Shown here: positions 1 to 53,510 of the stretch, piece by piece
How positions within the stretch are numbered: the stretch's first letter is position 1
Layout: the number at the start of each line of letters is the position of its first letter
Source: Minisyncoccota bacterium
GTDB lineage: Bacteria; Patescibacteriota; Minisyncoccia; Phycocordibacterales; UBA9973
Direction of reading: 5' to 3'
NCBI GenBank assembly: GCA_041662525.1
Contig: JBAZSF010000002.1
Span: 3,121-67,120, forward strand
Length of the DNA: 64,000 bases
Program-made: the position numbers and the translations under genes
Notes under the pieces: generated by a model
Seen by the model: only the letters and a program-made list of their open reading frames with translations
The model's database searches: none
What the model was told of the DNA's origin: nothing

Positions 1-8
1 CGACGACA

Positions 9-1805
9 GTGCAAACTTTTTATACAGACGGATATATTGAACAATATATTTCTGGTCTAGCTGAAAACACTACTTATTATTTTAGACTAGAAGTAACAAA
101 TAATTTCGGAACAGCATATTTAAATATTAACAACTTCACCACTCCTCAATGTACCCCTACTCCCCCTGCCCCTACTCCCATCCACGGAGGATGGAGTGAT
201 TGGAGTTATAAAAATACTCAATGCGGATTTACCGGCACTCAGACTCGTACTTGTACCAACCCTAGTCCAATGAATGGTGGAACTTATTGTGTTGGACCAG
301 CTACTCAGTCATATACAAATCCAGCGTGTTATGTACCACCACCATATATACCACCTGCTCCCATCCACGGAGGATGGAGTGATTGGAGTTATAAAAATAC
401 TCAATGCGGATTTACAGGCACACAGACTCGTACTTGTACCAACCCTAGTCCTGCTCATGGCGGAGCCTATTGTTATGGATCAGCTACCCAGTCATATACA
501 AATCCAGCATGTCCAGTAGTTCAGCAACCCACCGTTAACCTTTACGCTAACCCTACCAATATTCAAGCTGGACAAAACTCTACTTTGACTTGGAATTCCA
601 CCAACGCTACTTCTTGTTCCGCTTACTGGACGAACAGTACCGCTACCAATGGATCAGGTGTCGTCAATCCAAATGTTACTACTACTTACAGCATTACTTG
701 TTACGGTAATAGTGGTTTGAGTGCGACTGATTCTGCTACCGTGTATGTGAATCAAATTTATCAGCAAACTTGCCAAGATAGAAATGCTAATAATTATGGA
801 GGAACATTGCCCTGTGTATACAATATACAAACTTGCCAAGATTATAATGCAATGAATTACAGAGGAGCGTTGCCTTGCGTATATAGATCTGTTAATAACC
901 AACCTACGGTAACAGTCTATTCTGACCAAGTCAGTGTACCTTACAATGGAAGTGCTACCGTTCGCTGGATTACCACCAATGCATCTTATTGTAATGCAAG
1001 TGGTGGATCTGCTGGCTGGGCGGGAGTAAAAAGTATTGGCCCAGGAAGTTTCTACACTGGATCATTAACAAGCACTAAAACTTATACCCTTACTTGTAGT
1101 AACAGTTTCGGATCTGCCAGTGATTCAGAAACAATAACTGTTCGCGCAAAAACTGTTACCATCAATCCAAAACCTACTCCAACTTCGCTCGTACTTATCA
1201 CTTCTTCTATTAATCGAAATCAGCCAATCGTTCCTACAATTGATAACACCAGACCACGACCAGGAGATGAAATTAATTACACTGTAAGTTATCAAAATAT
1301 CGGTACTGGCGCTATTACCAATCTTAACCTACAAATAAATCTTCCTTTTGAAGTAGATTATATATCCTCTAATCCAAATAATCCGACTATCTCTGGTAAT
1401 ACTTTAATTTTTAGACTAGGAACACTCAAAGCAAATGGAGAAGGAACAGTAACCATAAGAACTCGAGTAAGAGATAATATTCCTGCTGGAACAAACTTAA
1501 ATTTCCCTGCAACTTTGAGCTACATTGATCCTTCAGGTCAAACTCAATCAGTAAATGCAAATGTTTCTGCGCAAGTATTAAGTAAAACAGAAAATATAAT
1601 TGCACCAATAGTACCACTCGGAGCAAATGTATTCTGGGCTGGTTTTCTTCCAACAAATCTATTCGGCTGGCTCTTCCTGCTTGTCCTTATTCTTATTCTA
1701 GTATATTTAGCCAAACACCTTTTTGATCAATCTTTTCACAAAAAAACTACGATCATTACTGATCAACCATCAGGGAAAAAGGTTACAACTACCACAGTAG
1801 AATAA
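9..1805 (+). CDS. Cell-surface repeat protein (5' partial): two thrombospondin type-1-like repeats, Ig/PKD-like ~90-aa repeats, DUF11-like domain, C-terminal transmembrane anchor
   Basis: ORF runs to window edge. Two near-identical segments '[43 protein letters not shown]' (WSxWS + Cys pattern of TSP1). Repeated 'T.TY.ITC..S.G.A.DS.T(V/I)' modules. DUF11-like '[17 protein letters not shown]'. C-terminal hydrophobic stretch '[14 protein letters not shown]'. Confidence 0.6.
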
Positions 1806-1830
1806 AAAGTAGTTCAAAAATAGAGTACCA

Positions 1831-1862
1831 CAAAAAACAGCGTAAATTTACGCTGTTTTTTG
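1831..1862 (+). terminator. Rho-independent terminator (perfect hairpin acagcgtaaa/tttacgctgt followed by T-run)
   Basis: Sequence aaaaaacagcgtaaatttacgctgttttttgtgg immediately after the stop of the surface-protein gene. Confidence 0.65.
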
Positions 1863-1877
1863 TGGTATATTTATTAA

Positions 1878-29043: not shown

Positions 29044-30741
29044 ATGGCTTTATTTGATGAAGAAAAACAAAATAAACAATTAGACGAATTGCATAAACAA
29101 GAAGAAGAGCAATTAGTAGCGACATTGGCAGAATCAAAATACGGTCTCCCTTATATTGATCTTTCTCGTTTAGGAATAGACAATGAAGCGCTTCGCGCAA
29201 TATCTGAAAAAGATTCTAGAGAATTAAACATAGCACCTTTTAAACTTTTTGGAAAAAATATTTTTGTAGCATTACATTCACCATCTGATGACCTTATAAA
29301 AAGATTAAAAGATGATCTAGAAAGACATAACCTCGTCCCAACTTTTTATATGGCATCTACGGCTAGTATAAATAAAGTCTGGGAAAGATATAAAGAACTT
29401 TCAATGGCAGAAAATTCAATAATCGGTGGAATAGATATTTCTGGAGAAGTTTTAAGAGAAACATCAAAAAAAATAGAGGAAATGCAGGATATTCAAAAAA
29501 TGGTTACCGAAGCGTTAGAAGGAAATAAAATTCATAAAATTTCTCGTTTACTTGAAATAATTTTAGCTGGTGCGATTGCCATCAAAGCTTCTGATATTCA
29601 CATCGAACCAGAACAAGAGAGGGGTAGATTGAGACTACGTCTAGACGGGATACTCCAAGATACAAACTTTTTTGGATTGGATGTTTACCATCTACTTAAT
29701 TCTCGTATCAAATTATTATCTGGTATGAAACTAACATCTAAAATAGCCCAAGATGGACGTTTTAGTATTGTTGAGGAAAAGGAAGAAATAAATATTCGTG
29801 TTTCTCTTATTCCTGGTGCTTATGGAGAATCAATTGTGATGCGTATTCTGGACCCGAAATCTATCCAAGTAAAACTCGACGAGATAGGAATAGAGCCTTT
29901 TCTTTTTTCCATAATCCAAGAAGAAATTGCAAAACCAAATGGCCTCATTTTAGTCACGGGACCAACTGGCTCTGGAAAAACCACCACTCTTTACGCCTTC
30001 CTTCGTAAAATTTATTCTCCAGAAATAAAAATAATAACTATCGAAGACCCAGTCGAATATCATCTACCAGGAGTAACTCAGACTCAAACAAATGAAGAGA
30101 AAGGTTATACCTTTGTTGAGGGATTACGTTCTGCTCTGCGCCAAGACCCAGATGTGGTGATGGTTGGTGAAATTCGTGATAAAGAAACAGCCGAAATTGC
30201 AGTCCAATCAGCACTCACTGGCCATATAGTTTTCTCTACTTTACATACCAACAACGCAGCCGGAGTTATCCCCCGTCTGATTGACCTAGGGGTGAATCCT
30301 AAAATATTAGTTTCTGCCTTGTCTCTTTCTATTGCCCAACGATTGGTTCGTAAATTGTGCACTTTTTGTAAAAAAGAAAAAATCCCCACTGAAGAAGAAT
30401 TGAAAACTATAAAATTAGTTATGGATAGTATCAAAAATGAAGGTAAAAATCTTACAAATTATAATATAAATCCCGATGCCCCAATAAAATTATTTGAAGC
30501 GGTGGGTTGTGATAAATGTAATATGACTGGATACAAGGGACGAATAGGTATTTTTGAAGCAATCAAAACTGACGAAGCGATTGAAAAAATAATGCCAGAA
30601 AATCCAAGCGAAAGAGAGATTAAAAAAGTGTCAGAAACACAAAGAATACTTTCTATGCGCCAAGACGGCCTAGTAAAAATGTTAAATGGTATTACTTCGT
30701 TCGAAGAAGTGCAGAGCGTAGTGGATCTAAAAGAAGAATAA
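29044..30741 (+). CDS. pilB: Type IV pilus / type II secretion assembly ATPase (PilB/GspE family)
   Basis: N-terminal T2SSE_N-like domain, Walker A 'GPTGSGKTTTL', Asp box, 'VMVGEIRDKETAEIAVQSALTGHIVFSTLHTNNA', tetracysteine 'CTFC…CDKC'. Confidence 0.9.
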   Translation: MALFDEEKQNKQLDELHKQEEEQLVATLAESKYGLPYIDLSRLGIDNEALRAISEKDSRELNIAPFKLFGKNIFVALHSPSDDLIKRLKDDLERHNLVPTFYMASTASINKVWERYKELSMAENSIIGGIDISGEVLRETSKKIEEMQDIQKMVTEALEGNKIHKISRLLEIILAGAIAIKASDIHIEPEQERGRLRLRLDGILQDTNFFGLDVYHLLNSRIKLLSGMKLTSKIAQDGRFSIVEEKEEINIRVSLIPGAYGESIVMRILDPKSIQVKLDEIGIEPFLFSIIQEEIAKPNGLILVTGPTGSGKTTTLYAFLRKIYSPEIKIITIEDPVEYHLPGVTQTQTNEEKGYTFVEGLRSALRQDPDVVMVGEIRDKETAEIAVQSALTGHIVFSTLHTNNAAGVIPRLIDLGVNPKILVSALSLSIAQRLVRKLCTFCKKEKIPTEEELKTIKLVMDSIKNEGKNLTNYNINPDAPIKLFEAVGCDKCNMTGYKGRIGIFEAIKTDEAIEKIMPENPSEREIKKVSETQRILSMRQDGLVKMLNGITSFEEVQSVVDLKEE

Positions 30742-34614: not shown

Positions 34615-35808
34615 TTATTTTATCTTTATAAATCTATGCTTACCGATTTTATAAACAGTTTTTAAAACTTTTGATTCTGAATCGTTGACTTTTTCATTCT
34701 TTTCCATATCGGTTATTGCTCCTTCTCCTATTAATCTCCTAAATTCTGTTTTAGAGCTAACTATTTTTCCTGAAATCAATACATCCATAAGTTTTACTCC
34801 GTCTTCTGCCTTAACCTCTAAAATATCGTCTGGTATACCTCCTTTTGCAAAAGTATTTACAAAATTTTCCTCAGCTTCTTTTGCTTTTTTTTCTCCGTGG
34901 TAAAAAGAAACTATTTCTTTAGCTAATATTTTCTTAAAAATCATAGGGTTTTCCCCAGATTTTACTGCTTGTTTCATTTTTTCTATTTCTTCCATTGACA
35001 CGCGAGTCACTAATTCAAAATAGTCGAATATAACATCATCAATAATAGACATAATTTGCCCATACATTTCAACAGCATTACCTGAAATAGGTATAAAATT
35101 CTTCAAACTCTTTCCCATTGGTCTACCATCAGACCCAAGTAAAAGTTTCATAACCACTGCGCATTGCGGAACAAGCTTAAAAGAAGGCATTAAGTGCCTG
35201 CCAGCCAAAAGATTAAAGGTCTGATCGGTACCACCAAGCTCAACATCACAATTGAGTGCTACTGAATCGTATCCTTGCATTAAAGGATACATAAATTCAT
35301 CTAACCCTATTGGTTTTCCAGACTTAAAACGAATCATAAAAGACTCCCTGTCTAGCATTTGAGCAATTGTAAATTTCTTAGCCAAATTTATCACATCATT
35401 AAAATTTAAGTTTTTAAGCCATTCAGAATTATGTCTTACTTTTGTTTGTTTTTTTATTACTGTTTTGAAAAATTGATCCTGATAACTCTTTTCCATCTTT
35501 TTTACATCTTTTAGAGTTGTCTCTTCTCTCATATCAACTTTATCTGAATGATCACCAACCAAAGTTGTAAAATCTCCTATAATGAGAGTAACCTTGTGTC
35601 CGAGTTCCTGAAAATCTCTAAGTTTTCTATGAATGACCGAATGCCCAAGATGCAAGAAAGACCCAGTGACGTCTGTTCCTAATTTAAAATGTAATTGTTT
35701 ACCACTTAAAAGTTTTTTCCTAAGTTCTTCTTTGGTAAAAACTTCATGGACCCCACGGCTTAAAATTTCATCTATTTTCTTTTCATCTGTTATAACTTTC
35801 ATATTCAT
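34615..35808 (-). CDS. tyrS: Tyrosyl-tRNA synthetase
   Basis: 'HLGH' HIGH motif in 'SFLHLGHSVIHRKLRDFQELGHKVTLIIGDFT', 'PMGKSL' KMSKS-like, C-terminal S4 domain. Start trimmed from ORF-track 36012 to MNMK (35808). Confidence 0.85.
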   Translation of the reverse strand: MNMKVITDEKKIDEILSRGVHEVFTKEELRKKLLSGKQLHFKLGTDVTGSFLHLGHSVIHRKLRDFQELGHKVTLIIGDFTTLVGDHSDKVDMREETTLKDVKKMEKSYQDQFFKTVIKKQTKVRHNSEWLKNLNFNDVINLAKKFTIAQMLDRESFMIRFKSGKPIGLDEFMYPLMQGYDSVALNCDVELGGTDQTFNLLAGRHLMPSFKLVPQCAVVMKLLLGSDGRPMGKSLKNFIPISGNAVEMYGQIMSIIDDVIFDYFELVTRVSMEEIEKMKQAVKSGENPMIFKKILAKEIVSFYHGEKKAKEAEENFVNTFAKGGIPDDILEVKAEDGVKLMDVLISGKIVSSKTEFRRLIGEGAITDMEKNEKVNDSESKVLKTVYKIGKHRFIKIK

Positions 35809-35830
35809 GGATTCTACCACGTTTTCTGCT

Positions 35831-38383
35831 ATGATTAAAGGAATGCAAAAAATATTAAAGAAATTCAAAAAATTGTTTAAAAATAAAAGGTTCTTGAGGA
35901 ATATACTGCTATTATCCGCGGGTGTTTCTATACTAATGTTTGGAATACTTGTTATTTTACTATCTTCTTTAAATATTCCTGATTTAAATTCATTTGAGGA
36001 GAGAAAAATCATGAACTCTACTCAGATTTATGATCGTACGGGGGAAATTTTACTTTACGACATACATCAAGATATAAAAAGAACAGAGATCCCTTTTGAA
36101 CAAATGGGTTCAAGCATAAAAAATGCGACTATAGCTATCGAAGACGCTGAATTTTACACTCACAGTGGAGTCAAAATAACTTCTACCATTCGAGCTCTTT
36201 TTTCTAATTTATTTCATTTTGGAATAGGAGGCGGTGGCTCGACGATAACTCAACAATTGGTAAAAAATACTCTTTTAACGACAAAAAGAAGTTACGTCAG
36301 AAAAATAAAAGAATGGGTTTTGGCAATCAAGATAGACAATTCTATGTCTAAAGATAAAATCTTGGAAGCTTACTTGAACGAAATTCCTTATGGAGGAACT
36401 ATTTACGGTATAGAAACTGCCAGTAAAACTTATTTTAATAAAACTGCATTTGATTTAACATTAGCAGAAGCTGCATACCTAGCTTCTATCCCCCAGTCGC
36501 CGACCACTCTTTCACCTTATGGTAAGAATAGGGCTAAACTGGATGCCAGAAAGAATTTAGTATTATCCAGAATGTTAGAGTTGAAATTTATTACCAAAGA
36601 ACAATACGACCAAGCTAAAAATGAAGTGGTAACTTTTATTCCACAAGCTATATTGGGTATCAAAGCACCACATTTTGTTTTCTGGATTAAAGATTATTTA
36701 GAACAAAAATATGGAGTTGATATGGTAGAAAATGGTGGACTCAAAGTTACCACTACCATAGACGCAGATCTACAAGCCAAAGCAGATCAAATCGTAAAAG
36801 ATGGCGCATTACAAAATGAAAAAGATTGGAATGGAAGCAATGCTGGATTGGTGGCAATAGACCCAAAAACAGGGCAAATTTTAACAATGGTCGGCTCAAG
36901 AGATTATTTTGATAAAACCATTGATGGTAATTTCAATATAGCAACAGCTACCAGGCAGCCCGGGTCCTCTTTTAAGCCCTTTATTTACGCTACGGCCTTC
37001 AATAAAGGTTTTACCCCAGACACAGTACTGTTTGACCTACCAACAGAATTTCAATCAACCTGCAACGCCTACGGCAAGGCCCTACCTGGATACAACCAAC
37101 GAGATTGTTACATGCCAAGCAATTATGATGGAAAATTTCGTGGGCCGATGAGTCTACGGAATGCATTAGCACAATCAATCAACATTGTAGCAGTAAAACT
37201 TTTCTACTTGGCAGGACTTTCTGATTCATTAAAAAAAGCAAAAGATATGGGGATCAGTTCTCTAAAAGATATCAATCAATACGGTCTCACTCTCGTTATT
37301 GGAGGTGGAGAAGTTTCACTTTTGGATATGACTTCAGCCTATGGAGTCTTTGCAAACAATGGGATCAGAAATCCTTATACTGGAATTTTAAAAGTGGAAG
37401 ATTCCCATCAAAAAATTCTAGAAGAATTTAAACCTACAGCACAAGAAATCTTACCCAAAAACACTACCTTAAATATTTCAAATATTCTTTCTGATGAAGA
37501 AGCTCGCCAACCAACTTTTGGAGTACACTCTGTTTTATATATTCCCAATAAAGATGTGGCTGTAAAAACTGGAACAACAAACGACAACAAGGATGCTTGG
37601 ACCATTGGGTATTCTCCGTCTATTGTTGTGGGTGTTTGGGCTGGTAATAATGACAACAAGCCAATGAAAAAAGGTGGGGCAGCAGTAGCAGGGCCGATTT
37701 GGAATAAATTTATAAATGAAGCATTAAAAATACTCCCTTCTGAGAGTTTTGAAAAACCAGACATGGAAACTGATCCGACTAAAATAAAACCAGTTCTCCG
37801 TGGATTTTGGCAAGGGAATGAAAACTTCTTTATAGATAAAATTTCTGGTCTCTTGGCAACTGATAATACACCAAAGGAAACCTTGCAAGAAAAAATAATC
37901 ACCAATGTGCATTCAATTTTGTATTGGGTGGATCGAGATGATATCTTGGGGCAAGCCCCCTTGGGGGGAGGAGACAATAATTCTCAATTTAATCATTGGG
38001 AAATACCTGTCCAAAACTGGTGGGCACAAAACAGAGGAAATTATCCGACAACAACTTGGAGCGAAAAACCAATTGCAGTAGACAATGTGCACACTGATTC
38101 ATCAAAACCAATAGTCTCGATTCTTGAACCAAATAATACAACCACCTATTCCCCTGACCAAAAAATAAATTTAAAAATTTCAAGTTTTGGAATTTTTCCT
38201 TTACAAAAAATAGATATTTTTATAAATGGAATATATTTAGAAACTATAACATCTCCTTTTAATTTTTCTTTTACCCCAAAAGATTTAGAATCTATACAAA
38301 GTGAAAATGAATTAAAAATAATTTCTTATGATACTGTTTATAACAAAAGTGAAACCAATTTAATTTTTAAAGTAAACCAGTAG
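35831..38383 (+). CDS. Class A penicillin-binding protein (transglycosylase + transpeptidase) with C-terminal extension
   Basis: GT51 motifs 'AIEDAEFYTHSGV', 'GGSTITQQLVKN'; TPase 'SSFKPF' (SxxK), 'KTGTTND' (KTG). Start chosen at MIKGMQK; ORF-track start 35633 overlaps tyrS. Confidence 0.85.
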   Translation: MIKGMQKILKKFKKLFKNKRFLRNILLLSAGVSILMFGILVILLSSLNIPDLNSFEERKIMNSTQIYDRTGEILLYDIHQDIKRTEIPFEQMGSSIKNATIAIEDAEFYTHSGVKITSTIRALFSNLFHFGIGGGGSTITQQLVKNTLLTTKRSYVRKIKEWVLAIKIDNSMSKDKILEAYLNEIPYGGTIYGIETASKTYFNKTAFDLTLAEAAYLASIPQSPTTLSPYGKNRAKLDARKNLVLSRMLELKFITKEQYDQAKNEVVTFIPQAILGIKAPHFVFWIKDYLEQKYGVDMVENGGLKVTTTIDADLQAKADQIVKDGALQNEKDWNGSNAGLVAIDPKTGQILTMVGSRDYFDKTIDGNFNIATATRQPGSSFKPFIYATAFNKGFTPDTVLFDLPTEFQSTCNAYGKALPGYNQRDCYMPSNYDGKFRGPMSLRNALAQSINIVAVKLFYLAGLSDSLKKAKDMGISSLKDINQYGLTLVIGGGEVSLLDMTSAYGVFANNGIRNPYTGILKVEDSHQKILEEFKPTAQEILPKNTTLNISNILSDEEARQPTFGVHSVLYIPNKDVAVKTGTTNDNKDAWTIGYSPSIVVGVWAGNNDNKPMKKGGAAVAGPIWNKFINEALKILPSESFEKPDMETDPTKIKPVLRGFWQGNENFFIDKISGLLATDNTPKETLQEKIITNVHSILYWVDRDDILGQAPLGGGDNNSQFNHWEIPVQNWWAQNRGNYPTTTWSEKPIAVDNVHTDSSKPIVSILEPNNTTTYSPDQKINLKISSFGIFPLQKIDIFINGIYLETITSPFNFSFTPKDLESIQSENELKIISYDTVYNKSETNLIFKVNQ

Positions 38384-38704: not shown

Positions 38705-39802
38705 TCATCTATTCATGGGCATGATAAGATAAGTAAAAGATGAATCAGAAATAGGAGAAATAACTATTGGCTTAGATGCTCCAGATAATTTTACAGAAAC
38801 ACTATCAGTATTAATTGATTGAAAACAATCTAAAAAATATTTATAATTAAAACTTAGTTCAACAATTTCTCCTTTAAGAACAGCATCTAAATATGTTTTA
38901 TTTTCTCCAATATCATTATTGGCAGAAGAAAGTTCAAAAATTTTTTCTTTAGGTGAAATCTTTAGATTAACTTGATTGAATTTATCTGAAAAAACATTAG
39001 AAAGTTTTAAAGCATTTAATAAATCTTGTTTGAGTACCACCACATCAGTCAAAGAATCTTTTGGAATGATTTGCCTATAGTCTGGAAAAATACCATCAAT
39101 AATTCTTGAAGTTAAATAAACATTATCGGAAGAAAAAGAAATTTGATTTTTATTAAAACAAACCTTTATAGTACCTTTAAATTCTCCGAAGACTTTCAAT
39201 ATTTCTCCTATGTTTTTATATGGGATAAGAATTCCCAGAATCTCCTCGAGTCCTTTTACTTTAACTTTTTTTTCAGCCAACCTAAACGAATCTGTAGAAA
39301 CAAAAATTAAATTATCCTCATTGGTATACATAAAAACACTTGAAATTTCAGGTTTAATGTCTGAAATGGAAGAACTATAGTAAACCGCTTTTATTCCATC
39401 AATTAATTTATTTGATTCTATTTCAAAACTACTACCAACAACTTTTGGTATTGTTGGGAAATCTTCGTGGGGCTGACTTTTAAGTTTTATTTGGCTTTTT
39501 TTTGTTTTAATTAATAAGTTTCCGTCTGTGTTTTCAAAAAATATATTTTCATTTTGTGAAACATTAGAAAAAACAGCATTTAATATTGATCCAGAAACAG
39601 CAAGGGATCCTTCTTTTTCCACCTTGGCTGGAATTTCAATTTCAATTCCAAGATTTAAATTTGTAGATCTAAGTTTTAATGAGTTATTGGAAGTAATTAA
39701 TAATATTGAACTTAATATTGGTAAAGTTAAATTCTTACCAGTAATTCTTTCTACTTGAGAAATAGCATTTTTTATTTTCTCCACAGAGCATTCTAGTTTC
39801 AT
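38705..39802 (-). CDS. dnaN: DNA polymerase III beta sliding clamp
   Basis: Three-domain clamp, N-terminal 'MKLECSVEKIKNAISQVERI…LPILSSILL', C-terminal 'IMPMNR'. Confidence 0.9.
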   Translation of the reverse strand: MKLECSVEKIKNAISQVERITGKNLTLPILSSILLITSNNSLKLRSTNLNLGIEIEIPAKVEKEGSLAVSGSILNAVFSNVSQNENIFFENTDGNLLIKTKKSQIKLKSQPHEDFPTIPKVVGSSFEIESNKLIDGIKAVYYSSSISDIKPEISSVFMYTNEDNLIFVSTDSFRLAEKKVKVKGLEEILGILIPYKNIGEILKVFGEFKGTIKVCFNKNQISFSSDNVYLTSRIIDGIFPDYRQIIPKDSLTDVVVLKQDLLNALKLSNVFSDKFNQVNLKISPKEKIFELSSANNDIGENKTYLDAVLKGEIVELSFNYKYFLDCFQSINTDSVSVKLSGASKPIVISPISDSSFTYLIMPMNR

Positions 39803-39947
39803 ATGTTTATATATTATATATTTAAATTATTAATAATATTAGGTGTGTTGATAAGTGTATAAGTATTTTTTATATTGGTAAACATTATTGTTTTACTGAA
39901 TTTATTTTTTAATTTAAGTCTGATAACTTTCTAATAACTATTTTTAA
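39803..39947. promoter_or_regulatory. AT-rich dnaA-dnaN intergenic region with DnaA-box-like TGTTGATAA (candidate DUE / second oriC module)
   Basis: 'gtgttgataagtgtataag' and >80% A+T content. Confidence 0.4.
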
Positions 39948-41285
39948 TTATTTAAACATAATCCTTATTTGTTCTAATTCTTGGATTAATTGTGGATCAT
40001 TTTTTAAATCTTCTTTGATTTTTACACATGAATGCATGACTGTTGTATGGTCTTTTCCACCTAATTTTTGTCCTATGAGTGGATAAGAAACACTAAAATC
40101 TTCTCGAAGTAAATACATAATAATTTGTCTGGTTTTTACTATTTCCTTTTTTCTAGTTTTTTCATAAATAGACATTTCTTCTAATTTATAATATTCAGCT
40201 ACAACTTTTACAACATCTTTTATAGCCATATTCTTTTTTGGTTTCATGTTGTTTTTTAGTAGATTTTTAACTTCTATGAGCGAGGGGGCCTTATTTTTTA
40301 AGCGATATTGGCAAATAATAAGATTTAAGCTTCCTTCAAGCTCACGAATATTTCCTTGGATGGAAGAAGCAACATAATCAATTACATCCTCTTCTAAGGT
40401 TATATTGAGTTCACGAAGCCTTACCTTAATAATTGCGAGACGAGACTCGTATTCTGGCTCAGTGACGTCTACAATCATTCCTGCAGCAAAACGAGACTTT
40501 AAACGATCTGCTAGTTCTGGAATATAATTAGGGTGTTTATCGGAAGAAAAAATAATTTGTTTATTGTTTTCATAAAAAGTATTAAATGTATGAAAAAGTT
40601 CTTCTTGAATTTTTTCCATTTTACCAATGAATTGGATATCATCTATGATCAAAAGATCATATTTACGATATTTTTCTTTAAAAGAATTTGCTTTATTCCC
40701 CTGGAGGGAGTTTATAAAATCTGTTGCAAACTTTTCCAAGGTCATATAGTGCACCTTTTTTTCAGGATGTTTATTTTTTATTGAATTTCCTACAGCTTGA
40801 ATCAAGTGAGTTTTTCCGAGACCAGTGCCACCATAAATAAAAAATGGATTATATTTAGTTCCAGGTGATTCTATTATTGCTTGGGAAGCCGCATAAGCGA
40901 GTTCGTTGAAGGCCCCGACAATAAAAGAATTAAAATGGTAACGTGGATTTAGATTATTCTCTGGATTTATATATAAATCCTTTAAAGGTAATTCTTTTTC
41001 TATGGTTTCACTTATTATTGTTTCTTGTTTAGAATTTTCTATTTTTGTAATTACATATTCTACCGCACGCATATTTTCATAATTTTCGGCTATGGTTTTG
41101 GTTATGAGTTTATGGTATTTATTTATAAGCCAATCACGAACAAATTCATTTGGTACTCCTACATACACAATCCCATTTTCCTCTTTTGCGATAGATGTAT
41201 TTTTAAACCATGTACTAAAATTGGCTTTAGACATGTCAGATTCAATTTTTAGTAAACAGTTTTTCCACAATTGGTTTGTGTTCAT
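39948..41285 (-). CDS. dnaA: Chromosomal replication initiator DnaA
   Basis: AAA+ 'GGTGLGKTHLIQAVG', 'LLIIDDIQF', C-terminal DNA-binding 'YPLIGQKLGGKDHTTVMHS'. Confidence 0.95.
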   Translation of the reverse strand: MNTNQLWKNCLLKIESDMSKANFSTWFKNTSIAKEENGIVYVGVPNEFVRDWLINKYHKLITKTIAENYENMRAVEYVITKIENSKQETIISETIEKELPLKDLYINPENNLNPRYHFNSFIVGAFNELAYAASQAIIESPGTKYNPFFIYGGTGLGKTHLIQAVGNSIKNKHPEKKVHYMTLEKFATDFINSLQGNKANSFKEKYRKYDLLIIDDIQFIGKMEKIQEELFHTFNTFYENNKQIIFSSDKHPNYIPELADRLKSRFAAGMIVDVTEPEYESRLAIIKVRLRELNITLEEDVIDYVASSIQGNIRELEGSLNLIICQYRLKNKAPSLIEVKNLLKNNMKPKKNMAIKDVVKVVAEYYKLEEMSIYEKTRKKEIVKTRQIIMYLLREDFSVSYPLIGQKLGGKDHTTVMHSCVKIKEDLKNDPQLIQELEQIRIMFK

Positions 41286-41436
41286 AGTTTCATATTATAC
41301 TCTTTATAAAACAGAAGGCATCTTTTAAAGCTTATTAACTCTGTTGATAAGCTGTGGATAAAAATTTTTTCTTAATAATTTTTTACGAGGAAGATTAAAT
41401 GAATTTGATTTATTCTTAATAATATTGTAAACTTTG
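41286..41436. promoter_or_regulatory. Candidate oriC: dnaA/rpmH divergent intergenic region with one perfect DnaA box (TTATCCACA) and an adjacent 1-mismatch box (TTATCAACA)
   Basis: 'ctgttgataagctgtggataaaaa' at ~41335-41360 read directly; classic rpmH-dnaA origin arrangement. Confidence 0.55.
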
Positions 41437-41439
41437 ATT

Positions 41440-41574
41440 ATGTCAGTTACATATCAACCTAAAAAAAGAAAAAGAGCAAGAGCCCATGGTTTTTTGGTTA
41501 GATCCAGGATTAAGACCGGGAAAAAGGTTCTTAAAAGAAGACGCCAAAAGGGTAGAAAAAAACTCAGTGTTTAA
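41440..41574 (+). CDS. rpmH: 50S ribosomal protein L34
   Basis: Translates to '[44 protein letters not shown]' (44 aa), the canonical bL34. Below the ORF-track size cutoff. Confidence 0.85.
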
Positions 41575-41586
41575 CTTGGTTTAAAT

Positions 41587-41910
41587 ATGCTTCCTAAAAA
41601 AAATAGAGTGAGCACCAAAGAAGTAGACAAGATCTTTAAAGAAGGCAGATTCTTTGTTTCCCCTAGTTTTACTTTTAAATACTTAAAAAGTACCAATAAA
41701 GGGGTAAAAATTTCCTTTATAGCTCCAAAAAGTGTAGCCAAACTTGCTGTTAAGAGAAATTTGCTAAGACGTCGAGGATATACAGCCCTTGCTAAGCATA
41801 TAGATCAATTCCCTTCTGGGCTTATGGGTGTTTTTATATTTAAAAAATATCAAGATGATATTTCTGTAATTGAAGATGAAATTAAAAATATACTTACAAA
41901 AATTAATTAG
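41587..41910 (+). CDS. rnpA: Ribonuclease P protein component
   Basis: 'LPKKNRVSTKEVDKIFKEGRFF…KRNLLRRR' with the RNR motif; follows rpmH. Confidence 0.85.
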   Translation: MLPKKNRVSTKEVDKIFKEGRFFVSPSFTFKYLKSTNKGVKISFIAPKSVAKLAVKRNLLRRRGYTALAKHIDQFPSGLMGVFIFKKYQDDISVIEDEIKNILTKIN

Positions 41911-42181
41911 TCCCGTTAGAAGCAGGTCTCCCCAAGGTGACCGAAGCACTCGCTTACTAGCGAGGGCGGCTTCTAACGGGATTAGCTTTTATCAAAAACA
42001 TATTTCTATTTTTTTGAAACCCAGTTGTGTTTTTTACCCTACTTGTTCAGAATACACAAAACAATCGATAGAAAAGTACGGCGCTTTAAAGGGTATTTAT
42101 TTAGGATTTTTACGTATATTACGTTGCCATCCTTGGCAGAAAAACCACATTGACCCCGTCACTCGCGAGCGACAGGGTTGA
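41870..42181 (+). CDS. yidD: Membrane protein insertion efficiency factor YidD, with in-frame palindromic insertion near N-terminus
   Basis: 'FYQKHISIFLKPSCVFYPTCSEY…RILRCHPW…DPV' matches YidD; 'PVRSRSPQGDRSTRLLARAASNGIS' is extra between 'LIS' and 'FYQ'. Confidence 0.75.
   Translation: MKMKLKIYLQKLISPVRSRSPQGDRSTRLLARAASNGISFYQKHISIFLKPSCVFYPTCSEYTKQSIEKYGALKGIYLGFLRILRCHPWQKNHIDPVTRERQG
41912..41980. repeat. Palindromic element (12-bp perfect IR CCCGTTAGAAGC / GCTTCTAACGGG with inner hairpin ctcgct-tacta-gcgag) inserted in-frame at the 5' end of yidD
   Basis: Read directly; corresponds to the non-conserved 25-aa segment of YidD. Confidence 0.55.
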
Positions 42182-42234
42182 TCCCGTTGTTTGATTTTCT
42201 AGCGTTTTTTTGCTTTTTCATATAGAATGAGGTA

Positions 42235-42960
42235 ATGCTTACAAATATATGGAATACTATTTTATATCAGCCATTATTAAACGCTTTGGCTTTTTTAGTG
42301 TCAATTATTCCTGGCGGAGACGTTGGTATTGCAGTTATTGTTCTTACTGTTCTTGTTAAAATTATTCTTTTCCCTTTGTCTCAAAAATCTATTGAAAGTC
42401 AGGCAGAGATGAATATTTTGACCCCTGAGATTAATAAAATAAAGACAAGTGGGGCTTCTAAAGAAGAACAAGCACGTCTTACGTTTGAATTATATAAAAA
42501 ACACAACACCAATCCTTTTTCAGGATGTCTTTTGGTTTTAGTTCAGATTCCTGTTATTTTTGCTTTATATTATGTCTTTTTTAAAGGAATAAATTTTGAA
42601 AGTGGACTTCTCTACTCATTTATTAAGGTTCCTTCACAAATTAACATGGTTTTTCTTGGTTTTCTTGATATCACTAAAAAAAGTTTAGTTTTGGCTATTT
42701 TGGCTGGTTTATCTCAATATCTACAAGCATATTTTATGCCAAAACCACCTGTCTCTTCAGGGACCGGCTCTTCTTTTGCAGAAAGTTTTACTAAAAATAT
42801 GAGTATGCAAATGAAATATGTTTTTCCATTTATTGTCGCTTTTATTGCTTATAGTATCTCTGGAGCAGTGGCTCTTTATTGGATTACCAGCAATCTTTTT
42901 ATGGTTGGTCAACAGATTTATGTTAAAAAAGAGAAAAATTTTAAGATTGTAATTAAATAA
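42235..42960 (+). CDS. yidC: Membrane protein insertase YidC (short, Gram-positive/Oxa1-like form)
   Basis: 'VLVKIILFPLSQKSIESQAEM', 'ELYKKHNTNPFSGCLLVLVQIPVIFALYY', five TM helices. Confidence 0.9.
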   Translation: MLTNIWNTILYQPLLNALAFLVSIIPGGDVGIAVIVLTVLVKIILFPLSQKSIESQAEMNILTPEINKIKTSGASKEEQARLTFELYKKHNTNPFSGCLLVLVQIPVIFALYYVFFKGINFESGLLYSFIKVPSQINMVFLGFLDITKKSLVLAILAGLSQYLQAYFMPKPPVSSGTGSSFAESFTKNMSMQMKYVFPFIVAFIAYSISGAVALYWITSNLFMVGQQIYVKKEKNFKIVIK

Positions 42961-44955: not shown

Positions 44956-45972
44956 TTAAAGTGTTTTAACGTATTTTATTCTTCCTGCATATGAACTTAC
45001 GGGTCTTACTGCGACTCCTCCTTGACCTTGTGCATCTATCATCTTACCATCGCCTATATACATCATCACATGGCCAGCCTTCCCTCCTTGTGGAGTCCAC
45101 CCAATTAAATCACCAGCCTTTAATGGCACACCATTTACTTTCGTTCCATCAGAACTGACACTTGTGGCAACAGTACTTCCTGAACCAAATATTCCAGTAG
45201 AAGTTCCTCCAGGATTTGATAATCCTGCACAGACATATACCTGACTTACATAAGAAGAACAATCTATCATTGCCTTGCCTCCCTTAACAGTATTTCTGTC
45301 TTGTTGACTATAGCTGGAATTTCCTACATAGGATTTAGCAATCCCAGAAAGAGCATTTGGTCCACCATCCCTAGGACAAATAATACCAACATTAGTTAAA
45401 TCATTTTTTATTGTTGCGGTATTTAGTTCTCTTGTACCTTCACCGCCTAACTCTACTGTAATCGTCACATCTTTCAAACTTGATAAACTAGAATCGAGCA
45501 ATTTAGGATTTATTGTATAAAGCAATGTCCAAGCACCGAGGGCTAAGATAAGACCAAAAATTGCATTTACAATCTTGCCTTTGCCGTCGCCTTTTTCCCC
45601 AGGAAGTTCGCTCGTCATATATTGAATACCACCCATGAAGATCATGACTACTGCCAAGACAGCACAGATACCAATGAAAATCTTGATCATTAAATTTAAA
45701 TACGCACTCAAATTATTTTCTTGTGTAGGGTCAAAAGTAGTCAGTGTTTCACCGTCAGGGTTGGGTAGTGGGGCTAAAAGATTGTAATTAGTTGTTGGTG
45801 TTGCTGATAAACTATTACATTGTGAGGCATCTCCTCCGTTATTTACAGCATCAATCACACATTGGTCATAAGCACTAATTGCTTCACTAAAATATATAGG
45901 AGCTAAAAAACCAAATAATATAAAAGCGAGATATGTTAAGGTTATTATTTTTTTAAATATATTTTTTTTCAT
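44956..45972 (-). CDS. Membrane-anchored NlpC/P60-family peptidoglycan hydrolase (TcpG/PrgK-like position)
   Basis: Two TM segments, C-terminal 'DCSSYVSQVY' (catalytic Cys) and 'GHVMMYIGDGKMIDA' (His). Confidence 0.65.
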   Translation of the reverse strand: MKKNIFKKIITLTYLAFILFGFLAPIYFSEAISAYDQCVIDAVNNGGDASQCNSLSATPTTNYNLLAPLPNPDGETLTTFDPTQENNLSAYLNLMIKIFIGICAVLAVVMIFMGGIQYMTSELPGEKGDGKGKIVNAIFGLILALGAWTLLYTINPKLLDSSLSSLKDVTITVELGGEGTRELNTATIKNDLTNVGIICPRDGGPNALSGIAKSYVGNSSYSQQDRNTVKGGKAMIDCSSYVSQVYVCAGLSNPGGTSTGIFGSGSTVATSVSSDGTKVNGVPLKAGDLIGWTPQGGKAGHVMMYIGDGKMIDAQGQGGVAVRPVSSYAGRIKYVKTL

Positions 45973-47036: not shown

Positions 47037-48890
47037 CTACTTCCCTGCTATCTCTCGTGCTTCTTTTTCTTCTCTAGCTTTTTTGTTTAATAATATTTGT
47101 GAAGGGTCAGAGGTAATGATCTGATCTTCGGTATAAGAAGAAACTATCTTTATAGCCACATGTTTTAGTCCTGCGAAGAATATACCCTCTCCTAACCCAG
47201 ATTCCAAAAGTAAATATTTTTCCTCATCAGTGAGATTGAAGGTCTTTTGCAAAATATCAATCGTGGTTGGTGATTGTTTTAAAAGAAGCTGAATAGAGGA
47301 ATTGGTAATAATCGGTACACCATAGGGAGACTTCATAAAGTCAGCTGCGTCTTGGGTGATAGTAGAAAGACCCAAGTAATATTTTCTACCTCTTTTAGCA
47401 ATGGAATACAAGAATGATGCGGTATCTTCGGATTTCATCATCCACCAAGCTTCATCTACTACGAGCAAGCGTTTCTTTAAATTCTTGCGAATCGCATTCC
47501 AAATGTAATGCATTATGATATACATAGCTACTGGTTTTAATTCGTCTTCCATGTCACGGACAGAAAATACCACAAATTTTTTATTAATGTCTACATTGGA
47601 TGGTCTATTGAGAAAGGTTGCCCAAGAACCTCTGGTATATTTTGCTAGTCTAGCAATAACTGAATCACTTCCTTCCATTCCAGAGAGCACCATTTCAAAA
47701 TCTGAAAGAAGAGGAGGCTCTATATTTGAAAAATCCGATTCTGGGGTGATATCTTTTATGGCATAAGTTTCTGAAATAGCTCTATCCACCATTGAATCTT
47801 CTTCTGGAGTGAGTCCTCCTAACATCAGTCTGAAAAGTCCCACTAGATTAATAATATTTGAACGCAAGACATCTTCGGCTGTTTCATCTTCACGAGGTAT
47901 TGGTAAATCAAAAGGATTTAAATGGTGATCTGAAGAAAGAGAGATATTAAAATATCGTCCACCGACAGCTTCAGTCAAGAATTCATATTCTCTTTCTGGA
48001 TCTATCACGATAACATCTATATCAAACATCAAGGATCGTAGGATTTCTAATTTTGTGGCATAAGATTTTCCAGAACCTGATTTAGCAAAGGTTACAGAAT
48101 TGTAATTTTCCAAGGAAAATCGGTCGAAGATAACGAGGGACGAGTTATGTCTATTAATACCATAGAGTATTCCTTTGTCGGAAGTAAGGTCAGAAGAAAT
48201 AAATGGGAAGACACTCGAAAGTGGCTCAGAGTTTAATTTTTGATGGATATTTAATAAGTCTGTTTCTATTGGAATAACACTTTTGAAACCTTCTTCTTGT
48301 TGGAAAAGCGCCGGCTTGATATATATAAGCTTTGATTCAAGCATCGATTTTATCTCATTTTCTATTTTAAATAACTCCATTTCGTTATCTGCATAAATCG
48401 TAATATAAATTCCCACATCAAACATTTTTTCTTGGGCTTGGATCAAATTATTACGAAGCCCTTCTAGGTCTTCGTAGGCAGTGTCCAGCATCGGATCACG
48501 TACCATTCCTTTTGATTCTCGGACATTTATTTGACTCTGAACCTCAGCCACTTTTTTCTGAAATTGTCGAAGCATCAGAGAAGTATCTATAGGGTGAACG
48601 AATATTGAAATATCAAAAATTTTATCCAAATTAATTATAGGAGAAAACCAATTGTCTGTTAAAAATCTCGGATAAGATATTATAAAAAAAGTACGGGCTA
48701 TTTTATTGCCTAAATTTATGGATTTTGGATCAATCTTTAAAGCTGATGGAGCAATTACGTCTTGGAGCTCTAAATTTGCAGATTCATAAATCTTTTCTGG
48801 TAAGACAGCCAAAACAGAAGCTCGCATTTCTCCAGCCCCAGTTTCTTTTTTTCCTCCTAATAATTTTTTTATGTTTTCTAAAATACTCAT
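47037..48890 (-). CDS. virB4: VirB4/TraC/TrbE-family conjugation (type IV secretion) ATPase, C-terminal ATPase portion
   Basis: Walker A 'AKSGSGKSY', 'LLVVDEAWWMM' (Walker B), 'GLSTITQDAADF'; AAA_10/DUF87 architecture. Confidence 0.85.
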   Translation of the reverse strand: MSILENIKKLLGGKKETGAGEMRASVLAVLPEKIYESANLELQDVIAPSALKIDPKSINLGNKIARTFFIISYPRFLTDNWFSPIINLDKIFDISIFVHPIDTSLMLRQFQKKVAEVQSQINVRESKGMVRDPMLDTAYEDLEGLRNNLIQAQEKMFDVGIYITIYADNEMELFKIENEIKSMLESKLIYIKPALFQQEEGFKSVIPIETDLLNIHQKLNSEPLSSVFPFISSDLTSDKGILYGINRHNSSLVIFDRFSLENYNSVTFAKSGSGKSYATKLEILRSLMFDIDVIVIDPEREYEFLTEAVGGRYFNISLSSDHHLNPFDLPIPREDETAEDVLRSNIINLVGLFRLMLGGLTPEEDSMVDRAISETYAIKDITPESDFSNIEPPLLSDFEMVLSGMEGSDSVIARLAKYTRGSWATFLNRPSNVDINKKFVVFSVRDMEDELKPVAMYIIMHYIWNAIRKNLKKRLLVVDEAWWMMKSEDTASFLYSIAKRGRKYYLGLSTITQDAADFMKSPYGVPIITNSSIQLLLKQSPTTIDILQKTFNLTDEEKYLLLESGLGEGIFFAGLKHVAIKIVSSYTEDQIITSDPSQILLNKKAREEKEAREIAGK

Positions 48891-51278: not shown

Positions 51279-53510
51279 TTATGTTTTTGTTCCACTGTCT
51301 AACTTAACCTCTGTCATTATTTTATGGGCAGCTTCTTTATTAAAACCACGATCATTTCCAAAGCTAAATTTTACTATTCTTTGAGCATAAGCCTGCCTCC
51401 TTCTTACATTTTCGGTTTTAATTGTTTGAATTTGTTCTTTCTGTAATTTTTCTAGAGCATCAATATTCTTTCCAGTTCCTTTCCTCTCGTAAGCTTTTCC
51501 AGCACTATCTAGAGTCATATAACTTTCTCCTTTCATGAAAGCAGTTTTGTCCTGTTTTGCATTTTTTAATGCATTTGTTTTTGTTTGTAATTCTAATTGT
51601 GTAATTGTTCCAGCTTTAAAGTCTCTTTCTGCGTCAACCGCTTCTTGCCTCTTCTTTTCAATTGTTTTATCAAGTGTGCTAATTTCTTGTGCATTTGTGC
51701 TCAACAAAGCCTGCAGATCCATTTCAGTTTTATTCAATGCTTGTTTTAATGATTCATCCTCTCTAACTTCAAGTCCTTTTGCTCTCTTTATATTTTTTTC
51801 TACTTTTTCTTTTCGTGTTTGTGCGATTCCGCCTTTTTGTGCTTCACCGAGGTTCATTCCTGTAGCCCCTGATAAGTTTTTGCCGGCAATTTTTACTCCC
51901 CGTACATCAAAACTACTCTTTTGGGCAAAAGCACCAACGCTTGTTAATCCACTAGCGACTTTGTTCATACCCAGCCTATTTCCCCATTCAGACTCTCCAA
52001 ATTTATTTGCTCTACTTGCTAATTTATTAGCAAGAGTTCCCCCACCTCCACCTAGAACACTTCGTCCAGCAATAGCTGTTGCTCCCAACCCTGCTCCCAG
52101 AGCTAATCCGCCTGCAATCTTTGCGCCTTTCATTACCATTTCACCTATCGCGCCAGAACCCTTTTTAGCATAGTCAGTTGCTTTTAGAAGAAGAACTAAA
52201 ATTAATAATGCAGGAAGAATAATTCCCAACAACGATTCTATCATTCGAGTGCTCGATGCTGTTTGAAGGCCTTTAAATATGTCTGCATGAATGAGCATAA
52301 ATATGAAATATAAAAAGAACATAAAAATCGGCGCCATAAAAGAAACTTTGATCAGGCGTGTAAACCAAGCATCCCATCCCAAAGAGTCAATTTTTTTAAA
52401 AGAAGGAACTACTGAAGACATAAAAGCAAAAGGAGAAAAAATAATTAAAACAAAAAATTCTATAAGTCGTCCTAAAAAGCTTAAACCAACTATAATAAGA
52501 CAGTAAGCAGCAAAAAGCATAAGTACTCCAGCGATAAGAAGCATACCAATTAATATTCCAGGTGCTACTTTGGCAGCTGGGGGTACAGGAACTCCGTTTA
52601 TTGGTTCTTGTTGCTTAGCATTATCTAAATATTCCTGACTTACTAATTTTGTAGGGTCAAAAGCGTTTACTAATCCCCCCGCAACATCTTTTTCTCTATT
52701 CCCCGTGCTTGTATACGGCCTGTCATTTCCTTGTGCATCTTTTGTGTTAACGCTTACTTTATTATAAAAAATCAACGCTAAAATATTAGAAGAATCAATA
52801 ATAACTTGAGTGAAAAACATAGAAAAGTTTATAAGTAGTGCCATTATTACGACACTTCCTATCATTTTTTTAACCTCAGACCCTCCCATTCCTAAAATAA
52901 CTTTAATAGCTATATAAAGCAATATGAGTATAAAGAAAATATTAGAAAGATCGCGCACTATCCCCCAAGCTTCTCTTACAAAAGGGTTGGAAAGAAATGA
53001 ACTATATAAAGTTATATTTACCAAGACATTAAAAAAATATGCGGATACATATAGCAACCAACTAGGAATAACATAAAAAATACCATAAAAAAGTTGGATA
53101 AAACATCCAGGCCAAAAAGTACCTGAAGCAAGAGGGTTAACAGAACATTTATTGTCAGTAATTTCTTTTTCAAAAGCTGATTGATTTGGATTAGGTGTTG
53201 CGGGTGCTGCCGGGTCTGCTGGTGTGTCGTCTATCGTCGGCTGTCCTGCTGTTATAACCCACTGATTGTTAAATGTATCCACACAAGGTGCATTAGTTGG
53301 CGGAGTAGTATCACAAGCTTCTTGAGGATCAGATGCAGAGGCATGCACCATCACCATCGGTCCAAAAATACCGATCAAGACAAAAAGCAAAAATCCCAAT
53401 ACTAAAATTTTACTTTTCTTGCCCCGTAGTGAGCTTTGCTCTACTACTGGAGTAGTATAAAATTTATTTTTTCCAGTAACAGAATTTTCTTTTGTTAAAT
53501 CTTTTGACAT
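51279..53510 (-). CDS. VirB6/TrbL-like polytopic membrane protein with Gly-rich and coiled-coil C-terminal extension
   Basis: N-terminal signal, Cys-rich extracellular 'CDTTPPTNAPC', ≥6 TM helices (e.g. 'IFFILILLYIAIKVILG', 'MLLIAGVLMLFAAYCLIIVGLSFL'), 'GGLALGAGLGATAIAG', then coiled coil. Confidence 0.5.
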   Translation of the reverse strand: MSKDLTKENSVTGKNKFYTTPVVEQSSLRGKKSKILVLGFLLFVLIGIFGPMVMVHASASDPQEACDTTPPTNAPCVDTFNNQWVITAGQPTIDDTPADPAAPATPNPNQSAFEKEITDNKCSVNPLASGTFWPGCFIQLFYGIFYVIPSWLLYVSAYFFNVLVNITLYSSFLSNPFVREAWGIVRDLSNIFFILILLYIAIKVILGMGGSEVKKMIGSVVIMALLINFSMFFTQVIIDSSNILALIFYNKVSVNTKDAQGNDRPYTSTGNREKDVAGGLVNAFDPTKLVSQEYLDNAKQQEPINGVPVPPAAKVAPGILIGMLLIAGVLMLFAAYCLIIVGLSFLGRLIEFFVLIIFSPFAFMSSVVPSFKKIDSLGWDAWFTRLIKVSFMAPIFMFFLYFIFMLIHADIFKGLQTASSTRMIESLLGIILPALLILVLLLKATDYAKKGSGAIGEMVMKGAKIAGGLALGAGLGATAIAGRSVLGGGGGTLANKLASRANKFGESEWGNRLGMNKVASGLTSVGAFAQKSSFDVRGVKIAGKNLSGATGMNLGEAQKGGIAQTRKEKVEKNIKRAKGLEVREDESLKQALNKTEMDLQALLSTNAQEISTLDKTIEKKRQEAVDAERDFKAGTITQLELQTKTNALKNAKQDKTAFMKGESYMTLDSAGKAYERKGTGKNIDALEKLQKEQIQTIKTENVRRRQAYAQRIVKFSFGNDRGFNKEAAHKIMTEVKLDSGTKT

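Follow-up and report, generated by a model that had tools for sequence, protein, structure and literature searches.

Reduced, four-cysteine thrombospondin type-1 repeats in a membrane-anchored surface protein of Paceibacteria

Thrombospondin type-1 repeats (TSRs) are textbook adhesion modules of animals and apicomplexans. A stretch of 64,000 nucleotides (nt) from a Minisyncoccota bacterium (assembly GCA_041662525.1, contig JBAZSF010000002.1, positions 3,121 to 67,120; hereafter the window) begins with most of a surface-protein gene in which two such repeats had been predicted from the DNA alone, raising the question of whether a bacterium of this lineage encodes genuine TSRs, in what form, and in what kind of protein. 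The elements at issue are the following.

3-1805, forward strand: 3' part of the surface-protein gene, with 600 codons and the stop of a gene for 669 amino acids (aa), whose first 69 codons lie outside the window
171-329, forward strand: TSR repeat 1, with four Cys; 20.8 bits alone against Pfam TSP_1 and 100.5 bits against the family profile
330-353, forward strand: Pro-rich linker YVPPPYIP, read in the translation, separating both repeats
354-512, forward strand: TSR repeat 2, 90% identical to copy 1; 23.0 bits alone against TSP_1 and 99.0 bits against the family profile

The two near-identical repeats are present where they had been placed, as the two direct copies (159 nt each, 183 nt spacing, 90% DNA identity) of a single repeat family, and their similarity is far beyond chance. 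The 16 nt differences between the copies lie in 12 codons (6 synonymous, 6 non-synonymous), and 47 of the 53 residues are identical in the encoded repeats. Both the WSxWS motif and the TQTRTC core named in the original prediction were seen in the translation. Repeats directly abut, without any linker, in many homologues. Adjacent TSRs of one protein are 0.80-0.96 identical, compared with a mean of 0.70 between proteins, which suggests that the copies were duplicated or homogenised recently, a common situation in the repeat arrays of surface proteins.

Profile searches agree with the assignment of these repeats to the TSP1 module. TSP_1 (PF00090, curated gathering cut-off 21.6 bits) scores 29.1 bits (E 1.1e-6) on the 600-aa protein encoded in the window and 34.8 bits on the 127-aa segment with two repeats; taken alone, repeat 2 is above the cut-off and repeat 1 slightly under it. 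Thus, a significant match stands behind the module named in the original prediction. Databases already carry a precomputed PF00090 match on the full-length protein itself (P0001, WC671_00975), although full-text literature searches found no paper describing bacterial type-1 repeats, their bacterial matches concerning type-3 repeats only. When the whole protein was compared by phmmer with all PDB sequences, every match with E<0.1 was a TSR protein, led by UNC5B (2.6e-12) and thrombospondin-1 (5.6e-10), followed by UNC5D, C8β, ADAMTS13 and properdin. The family profile, built from 23 repeats of the protein family, recovered UNC5B at 4.3e-13 and TSR2-3 of thrombospondin-1 at 1.8e-12 to 3.3e-12, with further matches to UNC5D, ADAMTS13, C8 and properdin. 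Across these 23 repeats W8, W11 and R26 are invariant, corresponding to the W-x-x-W of strand A and the strand-B Arg, the latter being a single Arg (Q-T-R) instead of the R-x-R of canonical repeats.

The predicted structure points in the same direction, qualitatively only. In two AlphaFold2 models (pLDDT 81.6 and 80.2) the N-terminal segment is irregular and leads into two long β-strands, and TSRs are reportedly built of one irregular strand plus two β-strands. Foldseek searches of the PDB with these models returned exclusively TSRs among their top 36 and top 33 matches, including UNC5D, thrombospondin-1, BAI1, F-spondin, properdin, semaphorin-5A and TRAP, all individually weak (E 0.03-2, TM-scores 0.3-0.5), and the statistics were no sharper for the second model, which was made from a broader alignment of 44 sequences. 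Judged from sequence, the repeats are almost certainly TSP1/TSR modules.

They are not, however, standard ones. The original prediction described a six-cysteine spacing, whereas four Cys were counted in each repeat. In the HMMER alignment to TSR2 of thrombospondin-1 (1lsl), the retained residues correspond to C2, C3, C4 and C6. The C1 position is taken by a variable residue four before the Cys of 'CG' (Lys in the window; codon 210-212 of repeat 1), and the C5 position by an invariant Tyr (codon 312-314 of repeat 1). Aligned jointly with six-Cys repeats from bacteria and with eukaryote-like ones, the four-Cys repeats are colinear and show the same two substitutions. The disulfides of group-1 TSRs are reportedly C1-C5, C2-C6 and C3-C4, so that the four Cys are compatible with C2-C6 and C3-C4, a topology that would be in accord with the TSR fold. 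Among 1262 unique repeats, both C1 and C5 are present in 1093, both are absent in 114 and only 55 are discordant, many of these being alignment shifts in long eukaryote-like repeats, although the count for this coupling is inflated by shared ancestry. Where both Cys are absent, the commonest residue pairs at the C1 and C5 positions are K/Y (35), Q/Y (31) and R/Y (9). Because the two Cys that are lost pairwise are those bonded to each other in group-1 TSRs, the four-Cys variant looks like the clean removal of exactly one disulfide. The four remaining Cys would form, by alignment, the C2-C6 and C3-C4 bonds, and a Lys/Gln/Arg…Tyr pair would stand in for the canonical C1-C5 bond.

In longer repeats the three strands are extended in step, by +3, +2 and +2 residues, as in L008 (GGWSAWSDWS…QTRTRSC…STETQTY) or in eukaryote-like repeats (GGYSDFGDWS…QTRTRTC…STETRxC), a pattern that independently fits a layered three-strand architecture. 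In comparison with canonical group-1 TSRs (thrombospondin-1 TSR2/3, 1LSL and 3R6B; UNC5B/D, 6OOL and 5FTT), the window repeat shares the GGW-x-x-W start, the CG turn, the Q/R-x-R-x-C strand and an identical C-x-N-P-x-P-x-x-G-G-x-x-C-x-G spacing; its predicted model has one irregular segment and two β-strands. The window repeat differs in having four Cys and not six (C1 replaced by K/Q/R and C5 by Tyr), in its two Trp and one Arg compared with up to three of each in animals, in having one layer fewer (-3/-2 residues when aligned by HMMER) and in belonging to a bacterial membrane protein. It also departs from the O-fucosylation motif C-x-x-(S/T)-C-G, the first Cys of which is missing (K-N-T-Q-C-G). 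O-fucosylation of this motif and C-mannosylation of W-x-x-W are eukaryotic modifications and do not define the fold. As the repeat belongs to TSP_1 by sequence and lacks the six Cys and three disulfides of the classical TSR, it is best filed as a reduced variant of the domain and not as a standard member. This lineage-specific subtype keeps the W-x-x-W strand, one partner-strand Arg (Q-T-R), the C-x-N-P-x-P-x-x-G-G-x-x-C-x-G turn and four Cys, and the window protein carries two tandem, recently duplicated copies of it.

The gene that encodes the repeats is bacterial. Its open reading frame (ORF) runs in frame 3 of the forward strand from the open 5' end of the window to the stop at 1803-1805, and the missing 5' end was recovered from the full-length protein P0001 and from contig L001. 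P0001 (669 aa) covers the whole query at 100% identity and is recorded, from a contig of 160 kb, as 'MAG: hypothetical protein WC671_00975 [Candidatus Paceibacterota bacterium]'. An identical gene adjoins the same sigma-factor gene on independent ENA and JGI contigs (L001, L002). GC content at third codon positions is 0.246 in the TSR segment, 0.249 in the rest of the gene and 0.23-0.30 in the neighbours, an equality on which contamination and recent acquisition were excluded. The genes of the window as a whole (34.5% GC) are of ordinary bacterial kinds and include an extracytoplasmic function (ECF)-type sigma factor, an HlyD-MacB ABC exporter, proB/proA/proC-like genes, ruvA/B/C, fpg, uvrA/B/C, polA, a pilB-like ATPase, PBP1, dnaN, dnaA, yidC, uvrD and one tRNA-Lys.

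The full-length protein has a modular architecture, starting with a signal-peptide-like N-terminus (MNNKIKLSIGFLLSVITLFSFLIIPTPASA; hydrophobic residues 4-33, ending in ASA). A Pro/Thr linker lies between the FN3-like domain and the first TSR. Besides the repeats and their linker, the following features were distinguished.

3-149, forward strand: C-terminal part of a putative FN3-like domain, suggested by sub-threshold Pur_ac_phosph_N matches in homologues P0008 and P0042
513-764, forward strand: β-rich module 1, containing two conserved, paired Cys (PTVNLYANP…TYSITC…VYVNQ), presumed Ig/PKD-like from its sequence pattern
765-883, forward strand: two 21-aa, two-Cys mini-repeats QTCQDxNAxNYxGxLPCVY (765-820 and 828-883; direct repeat of 56 nt, 79% identity)
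900-1148, forward strand: β-rich module 2 (PTVTVYSDQ…TYTLTC…ETITVR), presumed Ig-like, at the start of the conserved C-terminal core
1227-1523, forward strand: DUF11/CLIPPER, the membrane-proximal stalk domain (Pfam PF01345, residues 409-507 of the partial protein)
1659-1712, forward strand: single transmembrane (TM) helix, within Kyte-Doolittle segment 601-647 of P0001, conserved in homologues
1713-1802, forward strand: basic, Thr-rich cytoplasmic tail, read in the translation, with '[KR][KR]TTTT' conserved in the family
1825-1868, forward strand: terminator-like 20-bp hairpin just past the stop codon, from a promoter/terminator scan

The DUF11 domain (Pfam 41.5 bits, cut-off 24.6; TIGR01451 24.9 bits) and the C-terminal membrane anchor, a hydrophobic segment, had both been correctly anticipated. 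As for the Ig-like repeats, two β-rich modules can be recognised by sequence pattern, but hidden Markov model searches gave nothing significant for the first (the best match being K319L-like_PKD at E 3.1) or for the second. The mini-repeats, found in 1-4 copies in homologues, matched no Pfam family. Ahead of the TM helix the conserved motif F-[LF]-P-x-x-L-[FLI]-G-W is found, and behind the helix the '[KR][KR]TTTT…' tail (window 1641-1802). This conserved C-terminus looks like a lineage-specific anchoring or sorting signal. With a basic tail placed behind the helix, most of the protein is expected to lie outside the cell.

All of the 120 closest homologues listed are Patescibacteria-type proteins. 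In this family the C-terminal core (β-rich module, DUF11, TM helix and Thr-rich tail) is strongly conserved, the module at 900-1148 in all 120, and the N-terminal half is variable. The repeat occurs in 18 of the 120, with 1-5 copies each (32 in all) and none in the others. The TSRs are situated in the outer, N-terminal half of a modular protein of Paceibacteria (Candidate Phyla Radiation (CPR)/Patescibacteria) that is Sec-exported and anchored in the membrane as a type-I protein, with the order signal peptide, FN3-like domain, two TSRs, β-rich modules, CLIPPER/DUF11 stalk, TM helix and short basic tail.

In such a protein, the TSRs may be stiff distal modules, stapled by their disulfides, that help to form or display a ligand-binding tip for contact with another cell or a surface, either by binding a partner themselves or by keeping the tip clear of the membrane. 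An adhesin-like role is plausible from the architecture and from the biology of the lineage only, and is about as likely as not. It is suggested by the combination of signal peptide and C-terminal TM helix, by the CLIPPER/DUF11 stalk and by the variable N-terminal modules set on a conserved core; indeed, the signal peptide, stalk-type repeats including CLIPPER and surface anchor that characterise fibrillar-adhesin-like proteins were all found (hydrophobic segments 4-33 and 601-647). Fibrillar adhesins have CLIPPER/DUF11 as a stalk domain (PMC12617251), and cultured Paceibacteria live attached to methanogenic archaea, which they parasitise, through attachment molecules that are unknown (PMC10936435). 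The window protein shares with CLIPPER/DUF11 fibrillar adhesins the signal peptide, repeated β-rich modules, the CLIPPER domain and a C-terminal anchor; it differs in its single, membrane-proximal CLIPPER and in being anchored by a TM helix and not by a sortase, OmpA or archaeosortase signal. By eye, the Lys and Asp expected from the Lys-Asp-Asn triad of the CLIPPER isopeptide appear to be replaced by T/S and N (LVLITSS…INLP), making an intramolecular cross-link of this domain doubtful.

A likeness in possible working is also seen with the apicomplexan TRAP/MIC2 proteins, which are type-I membrane invasins whose one or more TSRs are extracellular and whose single TM helix leads into a short cytoplasmic tail; by means of them a small cell attaches to a larger host cell. 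The window protein shares their type-I membrane layout with extracellular TSRs, a resemblance that may be one of function and not of kinship: a vWA/I domain, an acidic Trp-containing tail and a gliding motor are missing, the TSR is of another subtype, and there is no evidence for shared descent of the whole protein.

Several observations weigh against a classical TSR binding mode. The repeats are near neutral (isoelectric point 8.2) and keep a single strand-B Arg, and TSRs are missing altogether from most family members. At the N-terminus no adhesive domain of a known kind was recognised, and weak FN3-like matches were found there in homologues only. In the main rival explanation, the TSRs would be purely architectural, serving as stiff, protease-resistant spacers that lengthen an envelope- or S-layer-associated protein while any binding is left to the FN3-like or other modules. 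Nearly every conserved residue of the repeat is structural (W, C, G, P and its one R), its surface is near neutral, copy number ranges from 0 to 5 among close relatives, adjacent copies are homogenised to the degree given above, as is typical of stalk repeats, and repeated domains serve as stalks in CLIPPER-type proteins. Nevertheless, the positions that vary between proteins (repeat residues 11-15 and 39-43) correspond to surface loops that could carry specificity, and eukaryotic TSRs are usually ligand-binding. A pure spacer function is regarded as possible on this evidence, yet somewhat unlikely.

The neighbourhood of the gene suggests another role, that of the extracellular sensor of a cell-surface signalling unit, to which the neighbouring ECF-type sigma factor and two small downstream membrane ORFs would also belong. 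A protein with sigma-70 r2/r4 regions is encoded at 1878-2459, followed by the two small ORFs, which have no Pfam match, and by the HlyD-MacB ABC exporter; L004 has the same downstream set, and in L005, L007, L008 and L009 MacB genes border the homologous gene. However, the 20-bp terminator-like hairpin separates the gene from the sigma-factor gene, the linkage holds in few close relatives and with a different gene order, so that it may be inherited synteny, and no anti-sigma domain was detected. A sensor function therefore appears quite improbable, and the adhesin-like role is retained as the preferred reading.

The distribution of the repeats bears on where they came from. One genome per GTDB species was scanned with two peptide patterns, and 198 TSR-encoding stretches were detected; the count is a lower bound. 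The best 80 of these come from about 70 genomes, comprising many Patescibacteria (Paceibacterota, Nomura-, Moran-, Yanofsky- and Staskawiczbacteria, and metagenome-assembled genomes (MAGs) labelled Saccharibacteria) together with Bdellovibrionales, Pseudobacteriovorax, Rickettsiales-labelled MAGs, Planctomycetales, Gammaproteobacteria (including two complete Azotimanducaceae chromosomes), Thermodesulfovibrionia and Omnitrophota. Given this spread over many phyla, and the repeat's presence in 18 of the 120 closest family members too, its description as rare in bacteria was overstated: only a small fraction of bacterial species have TSRs, which are nonetheless recurrent and widespread. One of the loci in this set, L008 (JAMPXW010000001.1), is labelled Burkholderiales; its contig, of 35% GC, encodes a TSR-DUF11 protein of the Paceibacteria type together with the MacB genes that relatives of the window have too, and the label is probably a binning error.

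Among 121 full-length repeats in the GTDB loci, 75 have six Cys and come from all groups, and 36 have four. All 36 four-Cys repeats lie on contigs labelled Paceibacterota, Paceibacteria or Nomurabacteria, or on low-GC contigs with uninformative or doubtful labels, and phyla other than Patescibacteria have six-Cys repeats only. The 'CGx[ST]G' loop, one residue longer, is common to the four-Cys form and to a subset of the six-Cys repeats of Patescibacteria; in other phyla the short loop is found in 30 of the 34 six-Cys repeats counted and the long loop is nearly absent. Three proteins (L014, L019 and L020) contain both four-Cys and six-Cys repeats. From this lineage restriction, the shared loop and the mixed proteins, we infer that the four-Cys subtype arose within Patescibacteria, where it would derive from ordinary six-Cys bacterial TSRs. 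The latter are equal in length to the window repeat and colinear with it, and also occur in large secreted multi-domain proteins; they differ in keeping C1 and C5, in a mostly 'CGGG' loop that is one residue shorter, and in their architectures (VWA+TSR, β-helix+TSR, or a prepilin-like N-terminus with 15-17 TSRs). Examples in the representative library, all with bacterial-looking N-termini, are P0243, with a prepilin-like 'GFTLVEVAI' start and 15-17 six-Cys TSRs; P0259 and P0296, with a TRAP-like domain pair of VWA and 5-9 six-Cys TSRs; and P0339, with a β-helix/NosD region and 5 six-Cys TSRs. This library, which is without taxonomy, yielded 5497 proteins at E<=1e-3 and 279 at E<=1e-30, the top matches mixing eukaryote-like and bacterial proteins. 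A profile search of a set of 5.8 billion proteins gave only proteins of 52-109 aa, mostly of unnamed source and probably mainly eukaryotic exons, and is uninformative on bacterial distribution.

Eukaryote-like exon fragments carry the same GGGTQTR(TR)TCTNPAPANGGADCVG core, which makes an old inter-domain transfer likely. A recent, direct acquisition of the repeats from the genome of an animal or other eukaryotic host is a different matter. It might be suggested by the striking local identity between UNC5B (RTCTNPAPLNGGAFCEG) and the window (RTCTNPAPANGGAYCSG) and by the occurrence of the GGGTQTRTRTCTNPAPANGGADCVG core in eukaryote-like exon fragments too. Against it, GC content at third codon positions is fully host-like, the four-Cys repeat has its closest relatives in bacteria, many bacterial phyla possess six-Cys TSRs with this core, and intermediates exist within Patescibacteria. 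A recent animal-to-bacterium transfer is thus rejected as very unlikely, and because of these bacterial relatives and intermediates any inter-domain transfer would be old and not specific to the window gene. No sign of a phage vehicle was found in a viral scan (IMG/VR), which gave only three loci (L082-L084); one of these three viral TSR contigs is a giant-virus MAG (GVMAG-S-3300013132-246). A bolder proposal would see TSRs as a long-resident prokaryotic extracellular module instead of a eukaryotic speciality, of which Patescibacteria evolved a two-disulfide version (Lys/Gln…Tyr replacing C1-C5) for host-contact proteins, and in its strongest form would have the TSRs of the animal matrix and of apicomplexan invasins descend from bacterial modules; it is speculative and has a low probability. 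Finally, a convergent Cys-rich look-alike, an assembly chimera or a eukaryotic contaminant, to which the shortness (about 50 aa) and low complexity of the module and structure-search E-values that are not significant alone might lend some colour, is effectively ruled out by sequence E-values of 4e-13 to solved TSRs over a colinear full-length alignment, by an ORF that runs on from the repeats into DUF11 and the TM anchor, by the identical gene beside the same sigma factor on two independent contigs, and by hundreds of Patescibacteria homologues. The explanation as a whole, that is, a reduced TSR subtype of Patescibacterial origin in a surface protein with an adhesin-like role, is considered probable.

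Other features of the window lie outside this question. Between the stop of the sigma-factor gene and the next ORF, a GC-rich, imperfect palindrome of roughly 92 nt (2461-2552) stands out in the AT-rich genome; its RNA folds at -47.5 kcal/mol (z -4.0), none of 200 shuffles folding as well, and it may be a terminator or an element of repetitive extragenic palindrome or miniature inverted-repeat transposable element (REP/MITE) type. A class-I (Trp/Tyr-type) tRNA synthetase ORF (34615-36012, reverse strand) overlaps the PBP1 ORF (35633-38383, forward strand) by about 380 nt; its synthetase match begins at residue 104, so that the listed ATG probably lies upstream of where the gene really starts. 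Two further regions and one single gene are made up as follows.

29044-30741: PilB-like T2SSE ATPase
38705-39802, reverse strand: dnaN, near dnaA and yidC
39948-41285, reverse strand: dnaA, near dnaN and yidC
42235-42960, forward strand: yidC, near dnaN and dnaA
43561-55663, reverse strand: type IV secretion-like cluster, including the next three entries
44956-45972, reverse strand: protein with NlpC/P60 and type IV secretion system (T4SS)-pilin regions
47037-48890, reverse strand: TraG/VirB4-like P-loop ATPase
51279-53510 and 53546-55663, reverse strand: two proteins of more than 700 aa with no Pfam match

The dnaN-dnaA-yidC region (38705-42960) is probably the replication origin, given the perfect DnaA box (41353-41361) and the one-mismatch box (41342-41350) in the dnaA-yidC spacer; over the whole window, DnaA box counts are only marginally above chance.

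These results leave the accepted view of how TSRs work unchanged. They indicate that TSRs recur in the surface proteins of host-dependent ultra-small bacteria and of several other phyla. The natural variant described here, in which one of three disulfides is replaced by a Lys/Gln/Arg-Tyr pair, offers a ready-made test of the role of that disulfide in the fold. Moreover, with their conserved stalk and shuffled distal end, the membrane proteins of this Paceibacteria family are reasonable candidates for the host-attachment molecules of the lineage.

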